From Syntrophomonadaceae bacterium (GTDB lineage: Bacteria > Bacillota > Dethiobacteria > DTU022 > UBA8154), in assembly GCA_007131175.1 (NCBI GenBank), contig SLRC01000002.1, positions 1 through 46,716 of the forward strand: DNA of 46,716 nucleotides, read 5' to 3'. Both the position numbers and the translations under genes were made by a program. The notes beneath the pieces are model-generated. The model saw nothing but the letters and a program-made list of their open reading frames with translations, was not told the origin of the DNA and made no database searches. Shown in pieces: positions 30,243 through 46,716 of the stretch. Numbering within the stretch: position 1 is the stretch's first letter; each line of letters opens with the position of its first letter.

Positions 30243-30536
30243 ATGAAGGTTAACAAAAAGGAAGTAGAACATGTGGCAGCACTGGCCCGCCTTACTTTTT
30301 CCCCAGAAGAATTGGAACTTTACACTGAACAATTCAATGATATACTGGAGTATATCAACAGGCTAAATGAGGTGGATTTGGAAAATGTTGAACCGACAAG
30401 CCACGTTCAGCCCTTGAAAAATGTGCTACGGGAAGATTGTGTCGTGACCAGTGATGAGGAGCTCCGCCAGTCTGTCTTACAGGAAGCGCCTGAAGTGGAA
30501 CATGGGTTTTTCAAGGTTCCAACAATAATTGACTGA
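30243..30536 (+). CDS. gatC: Asp/Glu-tRNA amidotransferase subunit C (copy 1)
   Basis: EVEHVAALARL, VEPTSH, NVLRED, FFKVP. Confidence 0.96.
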   Translation: MKVNKKEVEHVAALARLTFSPEELELYTEQFNDILEYINRLNEVDLENVEPTSHVQPLKNVLREDCVVTSDEELRQSVLQEAPEVEHGFFKVPTIID

Positions 30537-30601
30537 AGTATTAAGAAATGCTGATTTTAGAATCTGCGATTGTGAATGAAGGGAAGATCGGGGGAATATA
30601 T

Positions 30602-32080
30602 TTGAAACTTTACGAGATGACAGCTTATGAAGCGGCACAGTGCCTTAAGCGCGGCGAAATTAGCTCACAACAGCTTGTTAAGGCTGTTTATGAGAGGATT
30701 AACAGTGTGGAGCCCGTAATTGGCGGATATATTACGGTACTGGACCAGGAGAGGGTCCTTGCTGAGGCCCACCGAGCAGATGAACTTTTGCAAAAAGGGC
30801 AGGCCCATTCACCCCTTGCGGGCATCCCCATGGCTTTAAAAGATAATATTTGCACCAATGGTATCCCCACCACCTGTGCATCCCGTATCCTTTCAGGTTA
30901 CTGTCCTCCGTACGATGCGTTTGTAACGGCAAGGCTGAAAGATGCTGGGGCAATCCTCATGGGGAAAACTAATATGGATGAATTTGCCATGGGTTCCTCC
31001 ACAGAAAATTCCGCCTTTCACACCACGGTAAACCCATGGGACAGGGATAGGGTTCCGGGGGGATCAAGCGGAGGTTCGGCTGCAGTGGTTGCAGCGGGAG
31101 AAGCATTTTTTGCCCTGGGCTCGGATACAGGCGGTTCGATTCGCCAGCCCGCTTCCCTTTGTGGTGTGGTTGGCCTTAAACCAACTTACGGAAATGTTTC
31201 CCGCTATGGGCTAATAGCTTTTGCTTCATCGCTGGACCAAATTGGTCCCTTAACCAGGGATGTACGGGATGCTGCATTCGTCCTCGATATTATTGCCGGT
31301 CATGATAAGCAGGATTCCACCTCTGTCCCCGGGAAAAAGGAGCACTACGTCAGTTTTCTGGGCAAAGAAGTGAGAGGGATGAAAGTTGCATTACCCATGG
31401 AATGTTTCGGGGAAGGGCTTAAAAATGAAATTAAGGATGTGGTTATGCAGGCCGTGGAAAAGTGTGCTACAGTGGGAGTTCATTTTTCCGAGGCATCTGC
31501 GCCCAGTACCAAGTATGCTTTACCTGCATACTACCTGGTGGCTCCCGCTGAGGCATCTTCAAATCTGGCCCGTTATGACGGGGTCCAGTATGGATTAAGC
31601 GTCCGCGATGCAGAGAACCTCCTTGCTCTGTACTGGTCAACGCGAAAACAGGGTTTTGGCCCTGAGGTAAAAAGGAGGATCATGCTGGGAACTTACGCCC
31701 TTAGCTCCGGTTATTATGACGCTTATTATTTGAAAGCACTGAAAATGCGCACACTGATCCGGGAAGAATTCGCTAAAATATTCAAGGACCATGATTTTAT
31801 CGTTACTCCCACTTCGCCAACGGTGGCTTTTAAAATAGGGGAACAGAAGGATGATCCCCTCACCATGTATTTAAACGACATCTATACCATAACCGCTAAC
31901 CTTTCCGGGCTTCCGGCCATCTCCATTCCTTGCGGCTTTGTTGAAGGAATGCCGGTGGGATTGCAGGTAATTGGCCGGCCATTTGACGAAGGGCGGATGC
32001 TCCAGTTTTGTTATTGCCTGGAGGGTCTCCTTGGAATCAAAGGATGCATGGCGACTATTAATGTAAAGGAGGGAAAATAG
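30602..32080 (+). CDS. gatA: Asp/Glu-tRNA amidotransferase subunit A (copy 1, catalytically intact)
   Basis: ALKDNI (Lys), PGGSSGGSAA (cis-Ser), GSDTGGSIRQP (nucleophile Ser), VKRRIMLG, MYLND. Confidence 0.97.
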   Translation: MKLYEMTAYEAAQCLKRGEISSQQLVKAVYERINSVEPVIGGYITVLDQERVLAEAHRADELLQKGQAHSPLAGIPMALKDNICTNGIPTTCASRILSGYCPPYDAFVTARLKDAGAILMGKTNMDEFAMGSSTENSAFHTTVNPWDRDRVPGGSSGGSAAVVAAGEAFFALGSDTGGSIRQPASLCGVVGLKPTYGNVSRYGLIAFASSLDQIGPLTRDVRDAAFVLDIIAGHDKQDSTSVPGKKEHYVSFLGKEVRGMKVALPMECFGEGLKNEIKDVVMQAVEKCATVGVHFSEASAPSTKYALPAYYLVAPAEASSNLARYDGVQYGLSVRDAENLLALYWSTRKQGFGPEVKRRIMLGTYALSSGYYDAYYLKALKMRTLIREEFAKIFKDHDFIVTPTSPTVAFKIGEQKDDPLTMYLNDIYTITANLSGLPAISIPCGFVEGMPVGLQVIGRPFDEGRMLQFCYCLEGLLGIKGCMATINVKEGK

Positions 32081-33519
32081 TGCCAGGTGCATATGAAGTC
32101 GTAATTGGTTTGGAAGTACACGTGGAATTACATACGGCCAGCAAAATATTCTGCTCCTGTCCCAACAGGTTCGGCAGTGTGCCCAATACGAACATTTGCC
32201 CCGTTTGCCTCGGGCTGCCCGGCACCCTGCCCGTATTTAACAAAAAAGCACTGGAATTGTCGCTGCGGGCTGCCCTTGCCCTAAATTGCAAAGTCAATTC
32301 TTTTAGTCGTTTTGCCCGTAAGAATTATTTCTACCCCGATCTGCCCAAAGCTTACCAGATTTCCCAGTATGAATATCCCCTAGGGGGGATTGGATCCCTT
32401 GATATTTTCAAAGACGGTGAACTGGTGCGCACGGTTACGATTGAGCGTTTACATCTGGAAGAGGATGCGGGCAAGTTACTCCATGATGAAGAGCATGCAT
32501 CATCTTACGTGGATTATAATCGCTGTGGTGTTCCCCTGATTGAAATAGTTACCGCCCCGGATCTCCGGTCTTCAGAAGAAGCACGCCTTTTCCTGGAAAC
32601 CTTGCGACGAACTTTACTCTATACGGAAATATCAGACTGCAAAATGGAAGAAGGAAGCATGCGCTGCGATGCTAATATCTCCCTCAGGCCCAAGGGATCG
32701 GAAGTTTTAGGACAAAAAGTAGAAATAAAAAACATGAATTCTTTCAAAGCCGTACAACGGGGACTGGAACATGAAGTAATGCGGCAAACAAAAATCCTGG
32801 ATAAAGGTGGACGTATTTCCCAGGAGACACGGCGCTGGCACGAGGATAAAGGTGTGACCAGCGAGATGCGCAGCAAGGAAAAAGAGCAGGACTACCGCTA
32901 CTTCCCCGAGCCCGATCTTCCACCCATAGTTGTGGATGATACAATGCTAAAAAAAATCAGGGCTGCTCTACCTGAATTGCCCGTAACTCGCTATCGGCGA
33001 TTAATGAACAATTATGGCCTTTCGGCTTACCAGGCGGAAATAATCACGTCCGAGCAAAGCCTTGCTGATTTTTTTGAAGAGACATTACAAAACTACACTC
33101 AACCCCAAAAAGTGGCCAACTGGTTACTTGGAGATGTATTAAAAATAATCAATGTGGTGGCAAAAGAGATCAATAAAACCCTTTTTACCCCCGCCCACTT
33201 GGCGGAGCTCCTTGATCTGGTTGACGAAGGTCAGATTAGCGGACCCACAGCCAAAGAGATCCTTGAAGATTGTTTTAAAAATGGCAAAATGCCTGCAGTT
33301 ATTATGGTGGAAAAAGGGTTGGGACAAATCAGCGATACTGAAGAACTGGAGCGGGTCGTGGCTAAGGTCCTGGAAGAAAACAAGGCGGCTGTACAGGATT
33401 ATGAGGGAGGAAACAAAAAAGTTATCGCTTTTTTGATGGGTAACGTAATGAAGATTACTGGCGGTAAGGCCAACCCCCAAATGGTCACTGCCCTGCTAAA
33501 GAAAAAATTGGACAAATAA
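32080..33519 (+). CDS. gatB: Asp/Glu-tRNA amidotransferase subunit B (copy 1)
   Basis: IGLEVHVEL, HLEEDAGK, MEEGSMRCDANIS, RSKEKEQDYRYFPEPD, YqeY tail. Confidence 0.98.
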   Translation: MPGAYEVVIGLEVHVELHTASKIFCSCPNRFGSVPNTNICPVCLGLPGTLPVFNKKALELSLRAALALNCKVNSFSRFARKNYFYPDLPKAYQISQYEYPLGGIGSLDIFKDGELVRTVTIERLHLEEDAGKLLHDEEHASSYVDYNRCGVPLIEIVTAPDLRSSEEARLFLETLRRTLLYTEISDCKMEEGSMRCDANISLRPKGSEVLGQKVEIKNMNSFKAVQRGLEHEVMRQTKILDKGGRISQETRRWHEDKGVTSEMRSKEKEQDYRYFPEPDLPPIVVDDTMLKKIRAALPELPVTRYRRLMNNYGLSAYQAEIITSEQSLADFFEETLQNYTQPQKVANWLLGDVLKIINVVAKEINKTLFTPAHLAELLDLVDEGQISGPTAKEILEDCFKNGKMPAVIMVEKGLGQISDTEELERVVAKVLEENKAAVQDYEGGNKKVIAFLMGNVMKITGGKANPQMVTALLKKKLDK

Positions 33520-40246: not shown

Positions 40247-41011
40247 ATGTTTAACGGAAAAGTGGTGCGTAAAGTGCGGGAAGAGAAAGGCTATTCGCTG
40301 GCCGAACTGGCAGAGAGGGCGGGTATTTCTGTCTCCTACTTGAGCGAAATTGAGCGGGGCAGTAAAAAGCCTTCTCTCAAAACTATGAACAAACTTTCCT
40401 CTTCCCTCAATATGGCGGGGCGGGAATTTTTACAAGACTCCGCTGACGAAAGTTTCGCTTTGGGGGCGCGTATCCGCCTTTTAAGGGAAGAACGGGGTAT
40501 GAGCCTTCAGGATTTGGCTACTGCCACCGGTTTTTCTTACTCCTATATCTGTGAAATTGAGCGGGGATTGGTGGAACCTTCATTAAGAGCACTGCGTAAA
40601 GCGTCTGAGGCCCTTAATGTCCCCATCAATCGCATCAAGACGCCCGACAGTTCGCTGGGCGGCAAAATTGCCCGGGTAAGGGAAGAGTTAGGTTTAAAAC
40701 AGGCCCAGTTGGCCAAAAAGGCCGGCGTGTCCCCGGGGATGATCGGCCAGCTGGAACAGGGAAAGGTACAACCCTCCCTGCAGACAGTGGAAAAGATTGC
40801 CTCTGCCTTCGGCATTTCTACCTGTTATTTTATTGCCGGGGAGGATGGGATGGAGGATTTTCTCCACCTCCTGACCCCTGAACTGCGCAATTTACTCCTG
40901 GAGCCCAAGGTGCAGGGAGTTCTGCGTGCACTTTGTCATTGCAATGAGAAAGAATTTCGCTTTATCCTGGAATTTATCAGGATGTTTAAAGAAGCACGCC
41001 TCAGTGAATAA
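40247..41011 (+). CDS. XRE-family regulator with three tandem HTH domains
   Basis: Three copies of R..REE.G..L..LA...G.S..Y...IE.G...PSL. Confidence 0.9.
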   Translation: MFNGKVVRKVREEKGYSLAELAERAGISVSYLSEIERGSKKPSLKTMNKLSSSLNMAGREFLQDSADESFALGARIRLLREERGMSLQDLATATGFSYSYICEIERGLVEPSLRALRKASEALNVPINRIKTPDSSLGGKIARVREELGLKQAQLAKKAGVSPGMIGQLEQGKVQPSLQTVEKIASAFGISTCYFIAGEDGMEDFLHLLTPELRNLLLEPKVQGVLRALCHCNEKEFRFILEFIRMFKEARLSE

Positions 41012-43127: not shown

Positions 43128-43155
43128 TTGTGAAAATGGATAAATATGATATAAT
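43128..43155 (+). promoter_or_regulatory. Extended -10 SigA promoter of the second gatCAB
   Basis: TGaTATAAT (43147-43155) with TTGTGA 16 nt upstream of the hexamer. Confidence 0.55.
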
Positions 43156-43211: not shown

Positions 43212-43508
43212 GTGATCAAGCTGGAAAGCATTAAAGAAGACATTAAAAAGGCTGCCTTGGATGCCCGTATAAACCTGGCGCCTGTAGAAGAAACCTCACT
43301 GGAAAATCAACTGAAAGACCTCCTTAAGCAGGCTGCATTTCTCAGGGAACAGGAACTGGATATGGTCGAACCAACATTTTTCCCCCACAATCAGCAAAAC
43401 ACCCTGCGGGAAGACAATGTTTTACCTTCCATGCCCCTGGATAATGCGCTGGAAAATGCTCCTGAAGCTGATGACACTTTTTTCCTTGTTCCTAAAATCG
43501 TTGAATAA
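43212..43508 (+). CDS. gatC: GatC paralogue (copy 2, divergent)
   Basis: ARINL, VEPT, NTLRED, ALENAPE, FFLVPKIVE. Confidence 0.85.
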   Translation: MIKLESIKEDIKKAALDARINLAPVEETSLENQLKDLLKQAAFLREQELDMVEPTFFPHNQQNTLREDNVLPSMPLDNALENAPEADDTFFLVPKIVE

Positions 43509-43534
43509 ACAGTCACCAAAAAGGAGGTCTGGCT

Positions 43535-44824
43535 TTGGATATAAATAAAATGAAATCGTTAAATGCATTTATCTCCTTTAATCCAGCTGTAACAAGCGGC
43601 AAGCAGATAGGGCAGGCATCTGTTAAAACAGCAGCATTAGACGGGACTTCTTTTGCCCTTGCCGACAATATCTGCACTACCACATTGAAAACCACCTGTG
43701 CTTCCCGCACACTCGAAGCTTACCAACCCGCCTTCGGCAGCATTGCCGGTCAAAAGCTGGAGGACAAAGGAGCACTGCTGGTGGGCAAAACAAATATGGA
43801 CGAGTTTGGCATGGGTACGTGGGGGCAGAGCTCATACTTCGGAGCTGTAAAAAACCCTTGGAATGAAAAGCACACAGCCGGCAGCGGTGCGGCTGCAGCT
43901 GTGGCCTGTGGTGCGGTTACCCTGGCCCTGGCCGCGGATCGTCTAGGCGAAGTGAGACAGGCTGCCGCTTATTGCGGCGTGATCGGTCTCAAACCAACTT
44001 ATGGGCGGGTGTCCCGCAGCGGTCTTATCGACTGTGCTCCTTCCCTGGAGCAGCTGGGTATTATTGCCAAAGACAGCGCGAGCCTTGCTGCCGCACTTGA
44101 AACAATCAGTGGCCACGACCCTAAGGATACCACATCCTTTAAAACTGAAGTCCCCCCATACGTCAATCTTTCACAGGAAAAGCTTAACAGTGTCAAGGTG
44201 GCCGTCCCTGAAGAATGGAAGGCTTTTGCAGATGTGGCAGGGCTCAATAAAACAATCTTCCAGGTGAAAACAGTTTCCCTGCAATTCTTTAAGCATGCCC
44301 TCGTTACAGCTTATATTATCGCCGCCGTAGAGGCATTTTCCAGCATGTCCAACTTTGACGGCGTTCGTTTTGGCCTCAGGGGGGAAGGGAAACATCTTCA
44401 GGAGATGTACAGGCTCACACGCACAAAAGGTTTCAGCAGTCTCGTTAAAGAGTTTCTCACTTTTGGTGCCCTCATTTCCTACGGAAAATATTACAAAGAT
44501 TATTTTCTCAGGGCGCAAAAAATGCGTTCCATAATTAAAAAAGAACTGGAGGACTGCCTGCAACAATATGACCTGCTGCTGGTCCCCGCCGTGCCCTTCA
44601 ATGCACCGTCCTTGGAGAACGGCGTGACGGGGAGCAAACTGCCCGATAACGCCGCTTATTATTCAGCAGCAGCAAACCTTTCCGGTTTGCCTGCGATTAC
44701 CTGTCCCTTACCGGGATACGGCGCAGCAGAAGGCTTACCTGCTGCAGGATTGCAGCTCATGGCCAAAGCCTGGAACGAAACACTGCTCCTGCAGACAGTC
44801 CGCTTCCTTGAAAAGGAACAATAA
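43535..44824 (+). CDS. GatA paralogue lacking amidase catalytic residues (pseudo-amidase)
   Basis: GatA scaffold is retained (GKTNMDEFGMG, CGVIGLKPTYGRVSR, FDGVRFG, ANLSGLPAI), but the catalytic motifs read ALADNI, TAGSGAAAAV and AADRLGEVRQ. Uninterrupted 429-codon ORF with AAGGAGG RBS. Confidence 0.85.
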   Translation: MDINKMKSLNAFISFNPAVTSGKQIGQASVKTAALDGTSFALADNICTTTLKTTCASRTLEAYQPAFGSIAGQKLEDKGALLVGKTNMDEFGMGTWGQSSYFGAVKNPWNEKHTAGSGAAAAVACGAVTLALAADRLGEVRQAAAYCGVIGLKPTYGRVSRSGLIDCAPSLEQLGIIAKDSASLAAALETISGHDPKDTTSFKTEVPPYVNLSQEKLNSVKVAVPEEWKAFADVAGLNKTIFQVKTVSLQFFKHALVTAYIIAAVEAFSSMSNFDGVRFGLRGEGKHLQEMYRLTRTKGFSSLVKEFLTFGALISYGKYYKDYFLRAQKMRSIIKKELEDCLQQYDLLLVPAVPFNAPSLENGVTGSKLPDNAAYYSAAANLSGLPAITCPLPGYGAAEGLPAAGLQLMAKAWNETLLLQTVRFLEKEQ

Positions 44825-44912
44825 TTGGCTAAGCCATGGGAGTCGGTTGTAGCAGCCCCTTTAAAGATTCCCAAACTCACCAGCAACGCAGTTGCAATAG
44901 GAGGGATAATAT

Positions 44913-46358
44913 TTGCCCGAGTTTGAAACAGTCATTGGCCTGGAAGTCCATGTTGAACTTTTAACAGATACAAAACTTTTCTGTGGTTGCAGCACCGCCT
45001 TCGGCGCTGAACCCAACACCCAGGTTTGCCCCGTATGTTTGGGCCAGCCTGGCGGAACCCTGCCCCTGCTCAATAAAAGGGCTGCAGAGTATACAATCAA
45101 AGCCGCACTCGGTCTGAACTGCAATATCGTTCCAATAATTTCTTTTGACCGTAAAAATTACTTTTACGCAGACTTGCCAAAGGGATTTCAAATCTCCCAG
45201 TACTTTTACCCTATGGGTAAGGAAGGCTTTCTCAATATCCGCCTCAACGGCGAAACCAAAAAAATTGGTATACACCAGCTCCACCTGGAAGAAGATACGG
45301 GCAAGCTTTCACATATTGGAGACATCATTTCCTCACCTTATAGCCGCGTCGACTTTAACCGGGCAGGGGTGCCCCTGATGGAGATCGTGTCAGAGCCCGA
45401 CTTGCGCTCGGCAGAGGAGGCAAGGCTTTACCTGCAAAAACTCCGTTCCATCATTTGCTACCTGGGTATCTCCGACTGCAAAATGGAGGAAGGCTCCATG
45501 CGCTGCGACGCCAATATCAGTATTAGGCCTGTGGGCAGTACCAAACTGGAAAACAAAACAGAACTGAAAAACATGAACTCGTTCCGTTCCGTATACCGGG
45601 GCATCGAATACGAAGCGGAAAGGCAGCGTACAATTGTTCTATCCGGAGATACCGTTATCCCCGAAACAAGACACTGGGACGAAGCCAAAGGCATTACCAG
45701 GGCCATGCGCAGCAAGTTTGTCTCCGCAGACTACCGCTGCTTCCCCGACCCTAACATCCCACCTTACCCTACAAAAAACACATGGGTAAACGAGATAAAA
45801 GAAACAATCCCCGAGTTGCCAGATGCCCGTTTCAATCGCTTCGTGGAAACATATGGCTTGCCGCCCTATGATGCTGAAGTGCTTACTGCATCCAAAGAGC
45901 TTGCTGATTTCTATGACGGCGTGATTGGCTACTGTCATGAGCCCAAAATGGCCAGTAACTGGATCATGAGCGAGCTCATGGGACTGCTCAATTCCTCTGG
46001 TATTGAGATCACAGCATCTAAAATAACACCTCAGAGTTTGGGCAAGCTGCTTGAGTTCATCAGCAAAGGGGAAATCAGCGGCAAGATGGCCAAAGCGGTG
46101 TTCGAAGAAATGTTTAACACGGGTGAGGATCCGGCTCGCATTGTTGAGAAAAAGGGCCTATCCCAGATATCAGATGCAGATACACTGCATCAAATTGTGA
46201 GCAAGGTGCTGGCAGAAAACCCGAAATCTGTGGAAGATTTTCATGGTGGTAAGAAAAAGGCACTTGGCTTCCTGGTGGGACAGATCATGAAAGAAACCAA
46301 AGGGCAGGCTAATCCCCAACTGGTAAACGAACTGCTTACAGAAAAACTCAAAGCTTAG
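44913..46358 (+). CDS. gatB: GatB paralogue (copy 2)
   Basis: IGLEVHVEL, CGC/CPVC Zn site, HLEEDTGK, NRAGVPLMEIV, MEEGSMRCDANIS, YqeY tail. Confidence 0.95.
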   Translation: MPEFETVIGLEVHVELLTDTKLFCGCSTAFGAEPNTQVCPVCLGQPGGTLPLLNKRAAEYTIKAALGLNCNIVPIISFDRKNYFYADLPKGFQISQYFYPMGKEGFLNIRLNGETKKIGIHQLHLEEDTGKLSHIGDIISSPYSRVDFNRAGVPLMEIVSEPDLRSAEEARLYLQKLRSIICYLGISDCKMEEGSMRCDANISIRPVGSTKLENKTELKNMNSFRSVYRGIEYEAERQRTIVLSGDTVIPETRHWDEAKGITRAMRSKFVSADYRCFPDPNIPPYPTKNTWVNEIKETIPELPDARFNRFVETYGLPPYDAEVLTASKELADFYDGVIGYCHEPKMASNWIMSELMGLLNSSGIEITASKITPQSLGKLLEFISKGEISGKMAKAVFEEMFNTGEDPARIVEKKGLSQISDADTLHQIVSKVLAENPKSVEDFHGGKKKALGFLVGQIMKETKGQANPQLVNELLTEKLKA

Positions 46359-46431: not shown

Positions 46432-46460
46432 TTGACTTTTACAGGTTTCTTGTGTATACT
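46432..46460 (+). promoter_or_regulatory. SigA promoter of the tRNA cluster
   Basis: TTGACT-N17-TATACT, with TGTG just upstream of the -10. Confidence 0.8.
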
Positions 46461-46475
46461 AAGTCTTACAAATGC

Positions 46476-46553
46476 GGAGCCGTGGTGTAGTCAGGTTAAC
46501 ATGCCGGCCTGTCAAGCCGGAGATCGCGGGTTCAACTCCCGTCGGCTCCGCCA
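46476..46553 (+). tRNA. tRNA-Asp(GTC)
   Basis: Acceptor GGAGCCG/CGGCTCC, anticodon arm CCGGC-CT-GTC-AA-GCCGG, TTCAA loop, G73, encoded CCA. Confidence 0.97.
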
Positions 46554-46559
46554 TATTAT

Positions 46560-46635
<76 letters not shown>

Positions 46636-46641
46636 ACACTT

Positions 46642-46716
46642 GCGGAAGTAGCTCAGCGGTAGAGCATCGCCTTGCCAAGGCGAGGGTCGCGGGTTCAATT
46701 CCCGTCTTCCGCTCCA
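46642..46716 (+). tRNA. tRNA-Gly(GCC)
   Basis: Acceptor GCGGAAG/CTTCCGC, anticodon arm TCGCC-TT-GCC-AA-GGCGA, U73, encoded CCA. Confidence 0.97.

Follow-up and report, generated by a model that had tools for sequence, protein, structure and literature searches.

A triad-less GatA in a second gatCAB operon of Dethiobacteria: a candidate ammonia-dependent tRNA amidotransferase

The tRNA-dependent amidotransferases GatCAB, GatFAB and GatDE couple a kinase/transamidase to an active amide hydrolase via an ammonia tunnel, and this coupling is treated as defining (PMC2330236, PMC4027206). In GatCAB the hydrolase is GatA, whose Ser-cisSer-Lys triad has roles assigned to Ser178, Ser154 and Lys79 in Staphylococcus aureus (PMC2330236), and whose glutamine binders have been named as Tyr309, Arg358 and Asp425 (preprint 10.1101/733030). 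The subject of this analysis is a second gatCAB operon, here called gatC'A'B', in which the triad and these binders are missing from GatA'. It lies in a stretch of 46,716 nucleotides, referred to below as the window, which is contig C188 (GenBank SLRC01000002.1) of a 2.16-Mb metagenome-assembled genome of a Syntrophomonadaceae bacterium (219 contigs, 77% complete).

Bacterial GatCAB, as known from S. aureus (2DF4) and Aquifex aeolicus (3H0L), shares with gatC'A'B' the same three genes in the same order, the folds and the tRNA identity set. GatA', however, is without the triad and without Tyr309, Arg358 and Asp425, and scores under the TIGR00132 cut-off, while GatB' is altered at five positions. 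The yeast mitochondrial GatFAB with a truncated GatF N-terminal domain is also a heterotrimer; heterotrimeric amidotransferases can work with NH4Cl in vitro, and yeast GatFAB transamidates with 20 mM NH4Cl, more actively after the truncation, which is believed to destabilise its GatA site (PMC4027206). The yeast enzyme nevertheless keeps its triad and uses glutamine in vivo, and the truncated form is a laboratory mutant and not a natural one. In the archaeal GatDE, a GatB-like kinase/transamidase is joined to a different ammonia-releasing subunit, so the donor module is exchangeable (PMC2330236). GatD is an active asparaginase-type enzyme, however, and its family, PF00710, was found in none of five genomes that have GatA' only. 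Tse8, a type VI toxin of Pseudomonas aeruginosa, is an amidase-signature protein without the GatA glutamine binders that is inactive on glutamine and takes the place of GatA on GatB/GatC; its triad is intact, and it harms the rivals to which it is delivered (10.1101/733030). GatA', in contrast, is triad-less, has its gene between gatC' and gatB', and serves the cell that makes it, often as the only A subunit there; type VI genes were not searched for. A further structural match of the GatA' model is AtzE-AtzG (PDB 6C62, template modelling (TM) score 0.81). This is a 1-carboxybiuret hydrolase with a GatC-like partner, an offshoot of GatA/GatC outside the tRNA pathway, in which AtzE is an active amidase without GatB. 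Judged from its sequence and predicted folds, gatC'A'B' is thus a GatCAB by gene content, folds and GatB features that fails the triad, the glutamine binders and the curated GatA score.

Both gatCAB sets of the window are on the forward strand, the second lying 13 kb downstream of the canonical one and spanning 43212-46358 in the order gatC'-gatA'-gatB'. A model search of the whole assembly found gatA-like and gatB-like genes in these two sets only. The features are as follows.

30243..33519, + strand: canonical gatCAB with intact triad, following ligA; the same-genome comparison copy
30243-30536, 30548-32080 and 32080-33519, + strand: canonical gatC, gatA and gatB, respectively
43128..43155, + strand: promoter-like site TTGTGA-16-TG-TATAAT (extended -10) upstream of gatC'; a consensus match only, at 10/12 positions
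43212..43508, + strand: gatC', 98 aa, GTG start; TIGR00135 at 60.1 bits against a cut-off of 47.1; PF02686
43535..44824, + strand: gatA', 429 aa, TTG start with AGGAGG 8 nt upstream; amidase-signature fold without triad or glutamine binders
43661..43663, + strand: codon GCC of Ala43, aligned with the catalytic Lys79 of S. aureus GatA
43949..43951, + strand: codon GAA of Glu139, at the position of the nucleophile Ser178
44913..46358, + strand: gatB', 481 aa, TTG start; full GatB with cradle and YqeY tail domains

Identity to the canonical copy of the window is 38% for GatA', 51% for GatB' and 34% for GatC'.

The initial annotation had listed a series of lesions in GatA', and these were borne out. 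When GatA' is aligned to S. aureus GatA (2df4_A), Ala43 stands at Lys79 and Glu139 at Ser178, and the codons claimed for both replacements are present. The shortening of PGGSSGGS to AGSGA corresponds to a three-residue gap covering Gly153-Ser154-Ser155, so the cis-Ser is gone. The segments VKRRIMLG and MYLND, which hold the glutamine binders Arg358 and Asp425, appear as VKEFLTFG and DNAAY in the alignment to canonical GatA, and the residues at Tyr309, Arg358 and Asp425 are Ala, Phe and Ala. The missing N-terminus, put at about 30 residues, amounts to about 35: the Lys motif of GatA' is preceded by 38 residues, compared to 72-75 in most relatives. This shortening is confined to the window's own sub-clade (P0001-P0011); elsewhere in the family, also in two members from the same genus, the N-terminus is complete. 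Because gatC' ends 27 nt before the TTG start of gatA', there is no room for the missing residues.

GatA' matches the amidase-signature model PF01425 with 271 bits and the NCBIfam model TIGR00132 with 362 bits, under the cut-off of 481.1; five relatives score 371-400 bits. Its AlphaFold model has a mean predicted local distance difference test (pLDDT) value of 83.6 and a predicted TM score (pTM) of 0.88, and the best structural matches of the model are GatA chains (TM 0.90-0.92, root-mean-square deviation 2.4 Å), with 3h0l_A of A. aeolicus at TM 0.92. These data support a retained, non-catalytic subunit in which the changes are concentrated in the glutaminase site and the fold is kept.

The same lesions define a family. 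A word-indexed search of 5.8 billion proteins returned 38 clusters above the canonical background, and in all 38 the Lys is replaced, the same three residues are deleted and the nucleophile is replaced. In an exhaustive HMMER search of 1.84 billion representatives, eight 50%-identity clusters among the matches listed belong to the family (490-692 bits), and canonical GatAs follow from 452 bits down. For a comparison by column, 51 non-identical members, including copies from related genomes, were set against 83 canonical GatAs from many phyla; the canonical set drew on 80 canonical GatA loci, also from many phyla. The deletion and the loss of the Lys occur in 51/51 members. The position of Ser178 is Glu in 46/51, Gly in 4/51 and Asn in 1/51, and the Lys has given way to Ala, Gly, Ser, Glu or Asp. 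At the positions of the glutamine binders, Tyr309 is replaced by Ala (90%), Arg358 by Phe (84%), and Asp425 by Ala or Gly, with the Asp kept in 8/51.

The family has also gained conserved residues. Of 128 GatA columns that are at least 90% conserved in canonical proteins, 65 are kept and 63 are changed. Asn273 (in place of an invariant Arg) and Ser315 (in place of an invariant Leu) are each present in 100% of the members, Phe268 (in place of Ser) in 92% and Ala259 (in place of Tyr309) in 90%.

Frames of gatA' are open in all genomes examined. The ratio of nonsynonymous to synonymous substitution rates (dN/dS), estimated pairwise by the Nei-Gojobori method (NG86), is 0.10-0.21 for gatA' and 0.04-0.06 for gatB', compared to 0.06-0.09 for canonical gatA and 0.04-0.06 for canonical gatB. 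In the two least saturated pairs, the gatA' values are 0.21 (dS 0.26) and 0.185 (dS 0.71). GatA' is thus under constraint, some 2-3 times weaker than that on a catalytic GatA, and GatB' is constrained like any GatB; gatC'A'B' is under purifying selection and is not a decaying copy. The proposal that selection had acted for a scaffold subunit gains support from the low dN/dS, the uniform lesions and the kept fold, and a check of the orthologues for decay, with lesions identical in 51/51 members, gave no sign of neutral drift.

Three GatA-like representatives among the best canonical-type matches also have altered triads, without the three-residue deletion: P0131 (Lys to Asn), P0137 (Lys to Gln, GGSSGG to GGAAGG and Ser to Cys) and P0141 (Lys to Glu and Ser to Gly). 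To judge from these sequences, the GatA site may have been lost or altered on more than one occasion.

GatB' retains the features expected of a working kinase/transamidase. It scores 588 bits on TIGR00133 (cut-off 314.8), 376 bits on PF02934, 188 bits on PF02637 and 518-546 bits against solved GatB chains. It keeps 82/93 columns that are at least 90% conserved in 52 canonical GatBs. All 16 GatB' proteins compared share the EVHVE, HLEED, EIV and DANIS motifs, matched by motif only to the Mg/ATP residues described in PMC4027206, as well as the KME 3-10 turn. The 3-10 turn of GatB reads the U1-A72 pair (PMC2811023), and DCKMEEG, with the Lys-Met-Glu of this turn, is kept in the window's GatB'. 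The tRNAs of the window's genome carry the usual identity set, with U1-A72 in tRNAGln and tRNAAsn and G1-C72 in tRNAGlu and tRNAAsp.

The initial annotation had called GatC and GatB intact. Both pass their TIGR models, but GatB' is altered at several positions that are invariant or nearly so in the 52 canonical GatBs. In the numbering of the window's GatB', the changes are Ala86, Pro250, Phe269, Cys276, Asn281, Gln122 and an extra Gly47. By canonical residue, they are as follows.

Pro86: Ala in 14/14 GatB'
Gln248: Pro in 14/14
Glu267: Leu, Phe or Val
Tyr274: Cys in 11/14
Asp279: Asn in 11/14
Arg123: Gln in 14/14
No canonical counterpart: one inserted Gly

Pro86, Gln248, Glu267, Tyr274 and Asp279 (numbering of the window's canonical copy) are conserved in 49-52 of the 52 canonical GatBs. 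A GatB with an intermediate signature, P0358, has the source name Desulfofalx alkaliphila, another alkaliphile; its Gln248 is replaced by Ser, Glu267 by Leu and Tyr274 by Cys, and Pro86 and Asp279 are kept.

In a maximum-likelihood tree, the GatBs encoded beside a triad-less GatA form one clade (17/17; Shimodaira-Hasegawa-like approximate likelihood ratio test (SH-aLRT) support 99), from which the canonical GatBs encoded in those genomes are separate. A second tree, with members from six families of the class, gave the same GatB' clade (15/15, SH-aLRT 99). This single clade points to one origin followed by vertical descent. Elsewhere in the trees, the canonical GatB of one genome of family f1 (L125, G014:C214) groups with those of families f3 and f5, outside the f1 canonical clade, which could reflect transfer or a binning error.

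GatC is required for the folding of GatA and for its complex with GatB (PMC2330236), and gatC' orthologues adjoin every gatA' examined. A predicted complex of GatB' residues 1-300 with GatC' and GatA' scored 0.89, but a control in which chain 1 was replaced reached 0.72, and the prediction counts neither for nor against assembly. Independently of it, we infer that the three proteins form a trimer.

The distribution of the family was examined with a family-profile search of 115 genomes of the window's order, in which a sole copy is defined as the only match at E <= 1e-60. The profile scores are bimodal: 26/115 genomes have a gene that scores 536-765 bits, and no other match exceeds 462 bits. 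The triad-less type occurs by family as follows.

f1: 24 of 33 genomes
f2: 1 of 1
f4: 1 of 1
f3: 0 of 73
f5: 0 of 7

Half of the carriers (13/26) also hold a canonical copy; in the other 13 the triad-less gene is the only match. These sole-copy bins are 82-97% complete and include all four genomes of genus g4 and 4/5 of genus g9, and two of the assemblies are in about ten contigs. Searches of five of these bins with TIGR00132 and TIGR00133 gave, in each, one gatA, below the threshold, and one gatB. The two genes are adjacent in 4/5; in G013 they sit at the ends of two separate contigs. The triad-less motifs were read directly in four of the five. Many f3 and f5 genomes have a second GatA-like gene that scores 310-366 bits on the family profile, below the canonical copy (for example, G034:C19:768-2177 and G035:C23:7606-8997).

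Organisms with a single GatA/GatB set might make their Asn-tRNA and Gln-tRNA directly. Asparaginyl-tRNA synthetase (AsnRS), however, is absent from all nine sole-copy genomes searched for it, and glutaminyl-tRNA synthetase (GlnRS) from eight of the nine, where only the expected weak cross-matches to GluRS, AspRS and LysRS were obtained. The exception is G025, the genome of family f2, which has a true GlnRS (664 bits, G025:C215:864-2156) and would need the triad-less enzyme for Asn-tRNA only; the eight others tested belong to f1. With a sole GatA/GatB set, no AsnRS and mostly no GlnRS, there is no other known route to Asn-tRNAAsn and, in all of the nine but one, to Gln-tRNAGln. The complex must therefore, as read from these gene inventories, be a working, essential amidotransferase.

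As far as searched, the triad-less family is confined to one class of Bacillota, the Dethiobacteria. The GatB' signature recurs in proteins with the source names 'Candidatus Contubernalis alkaliaceticus' and 'Dethiobacter sp.', and P0395, annotated as 'amidase family protein [Candidatus Contubernalis alkaliaceticus]', is triad-less, with Lys replaced by Gly, the same deletion and Ser replaced by Gly. The Contubernalis/Dethiobacter-type subgroup has Gly at the Glu139 position throughout. In G143, a genome of the window's class in one contig of 3.6 Mb, P0395 is encoded at 100% identity within a gatC'A'B' operon, and a canonical gatCAB lies 42 kb away. In a search of the class, 5/6 genomes of family f8 match P0395 at 59% identity or more, the motifs having been read in G143 alone. 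The loci retrieved for two genomes of f6 and two of f7 also carry the triad-less operon.

The genome article on 'Ca. Contubernalis alkaliaceticus' presents it as a soda-lake member of the class Dethiobacteria that is alkaliphilic and obligately syntrophic (PMC10608574). In the available text of that article, the terms amidotransferase, gatA, glutamine and ammonium have no occurrences. The window's own stretch is present in sequencing runs whose labels are soda lake, alkali sediment and salt lake metagenome, with difference-free contigs in two of them; runs X4 and X6-X8, with small shares of its words, were left out of the habitat assessment. The habitat indicated is alkaline, and not specifically the ammonia-rich one first suggested.

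Because the GatA' active site is dead and the complex is the sole enzyme in relatives, the nitrogen must come another way. The interpretation that we favour, with modest confidence, is that GatC'A'B' is an ammonia-dependent amidotransferase with GatA' as a scaffold, suited to alkaline cells. GatB' would bind tRNAs with U1-A72, phosphorylate the side chain with ATP and amidate the intermediate, and GatA', held by GatC', would be kept as a structural partner only. The amide nitrogen would most likely be free ammonia and not glutamine, and GatA' and GatC' may have been retained for folding, stability or contacts with the tRNA or synthetase. Ammonia could pass through the altered pocket of GatA' or reach the GatB' site directly; the bulky conserved pocket residues Phe268, Phe307, Lys318 and Glu139 could equally be a plug. 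Since the pKa of ammonium is about 9.25, much more of it is present as NH3 when the cytoplasm is alkaline, which makes the use of free ammonia plausible in soda-lake anaerobes. Bypassing glutamine would also save the ATP spent by glutamine synthetase, a saving that may matter to energy-limited syntrophs.

It may be that the enzyme works with ammonia from elsewhere, released by a protein that docks to it, such as a stand-alone glutamine amidotransferase subunit or a transamidosome partner. This is unlikely, though better founded than the other alternatives: the old GatA' pocket holds newly conserved, non-random residues, GatB' is altered at otherwise invariant positions, as might suit a new interface, and glutaminase activity reported for the mycobacterial non-discriminating AspRS is mentioned in PMC8406222. 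However, no recurring fourth gene was found beside gatC'A'B' when gene order was read at 25 loci from 25 genomes (G002, G013, G109-G112, G144-G146 and G148 lie outside this count). The order gatC-gatA-gatB is common to all related loci read, and neighbours vary between genera; at the two of the 25 loci that were scanned against Pfam, they are housekeeping genes, including CoaD, RsmD and nucleoside-recognition ('Gate') genes. Nor was a GatD-type (PF00710) or GlsA-type (PF04960) gene found in the five GatA'-only genomes, the class I and II glutamine amidotransferases not being searched. A repurposed set, acting on another acceptor or with another amine or regulating the canonical enzyme, is improbable. 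In the window's own genome the canonical gatCAB 13 kb upstream makes a second set unneeded for decoding, and five or more otherwise invariant GatB positions differ. The set is nevertheless the only GatA/GatB in 13 genomes, with no AsnRS in the nine tested and GlnRS in one, and GatB' has lost neither its catalytic motifs nor its tail domain nor the 3-10 turn that reads the tRNA. The initial proposals of a different amine or acceptor thus found no support, and a role outside Gln/Asn-tRNA synthesis is unlikely.

Still less probable is a GatA' that frees ammonia from an amide by a new mechanism, for example with the Glu in place of the Ser. Although Glu139 is found in 46/51 relatives and Asn273 and Ser315 are invariant new polar residues, the whole Contubernalis/Dethiobacter-type subgroup has Gly instead of Glu, the Lys position is variable and all three glutamine binders are lost. 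Glu139 was considered as a new catalytic or ammonium-binding residue, and this too is weakened by the Gly of that subgroup. The least credible alternative is that gatC'A'B' is a decaying duplicate, or that the sole-copy pattern is an artefact of incomplete bins. The assembly that holds the window is in 219 contigs at 77% completeness, most relatives are bins, and gatA' evolves 2-3 times faster than canonical gatA; but the frames are open, dN/dS is well below 1, and 13 bins from several genera, at 82-97% completeness, lack the canonical set and have gatC'A'B'. This explanation is largely refuted.

Several observations weigh against an ammonia-dependent enzyme with a scaffold GatA'. In P. aeruginosa, Tse8, a GatA look-alike that is inactive on glutamine, replaces GatA and lowers fitness (10.1101/733030). 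This harm implies that free ammonia is insufficient for an ordinary enzyme in an ordinary cell, so what tips the balance here must be the altered GatB', the alkaline surroundings or the two together. The new residues conserved in the former pocket could indicate a new ligand rather than a mere plug, and the glutamine amidotransferase classes outside the search leave room for another donor. None of the 73 f3 or seven f5 genomes of the same order has the triad-less type, and a link to alkalinity is tentative. The presence of both copies in 13/26 carriers may mean that the triad-less enzyme is insufficient under some conditions, and most of the genomes are metagenome bins.

Some further features of the window concern the setting of the operon. 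Upstream of gatC'A'B' are a MobB-like gene and an rRNA-methylase-like gene, and downstream is a tRNA-Asp/Phe/Gly cluster (46432-46716) with a promoter-like site just upstream. This cluster has very high depth in all four runs because conserved tRNA sequence from many organisms contributes to it. A dedicated promoter had been proposed for the operon. A promoter-like site is indeed present, but it is a consensus match, and the region contains six such sites compared to 3.9 +/- 1.9 in shuffled sequence. The Rfam scan of the window gave three tRNAs only, with no T-box or other leader RNA among the matches. In a metatranscriptome run (X5; contigs only, in which DNA may be present), a 178-base contig lies inside gatA' (43573-43750) with 0 differences, and a second contig has 15 differences; the first is a hint only of gatA' transcription. 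The canonical gatA as listed (510 aa from the first ATG, 30548-32080) probably starts later, because the GatA model match begins at residue 31 and relatives are about 20 residues shorter before the Lys motif. Between the two operons, a gene at 40247-41011 (+ strand) encodes a 254-aa protein of three tandem helix-turn-helix (HTH_3) domains.

No description of a triad-less GatA was found in the literature covered, most subscription journals and supplements being outside that coverage. GatA' proteins are annotated as ordinary GatA or as 'amidase family protein', and genome-based metabolic reconstructions therefore misread them. There is about an even chance that GatC'A'B' is the first natural tRNA-dependent amidotransferase without any glutaminase, an obligately ammonia-using enzyme that arose once in the alkaliphilic Dethiobacteria and in whole genera took over from the glutamine-dependent enzyme as the sole means of decoding Gln and Asn codons.

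A dead hydrolase in the only route to Asn-tRNA, and usually to Gln-tRNA, breaks the rule of coupling. It offers a natural system for studying the ammonia path to the GatB site, the role of GatA besides catalysis, and how extreme pH and energy limitation reshape core translation. A cultivated organism, with a syntrophic co-culture and a closed genome, carries both enzyme types, so the question is directly testable. If the ammonia-dependent interpretation is true, the decoding of two amino acids in these bacteria would be tied directly to free NH3, and thus to cytoplasmic pH, and the kinase/transamidase core of GatB would be chemically self-sufficient, as models of the ancestral enzyme suppose.

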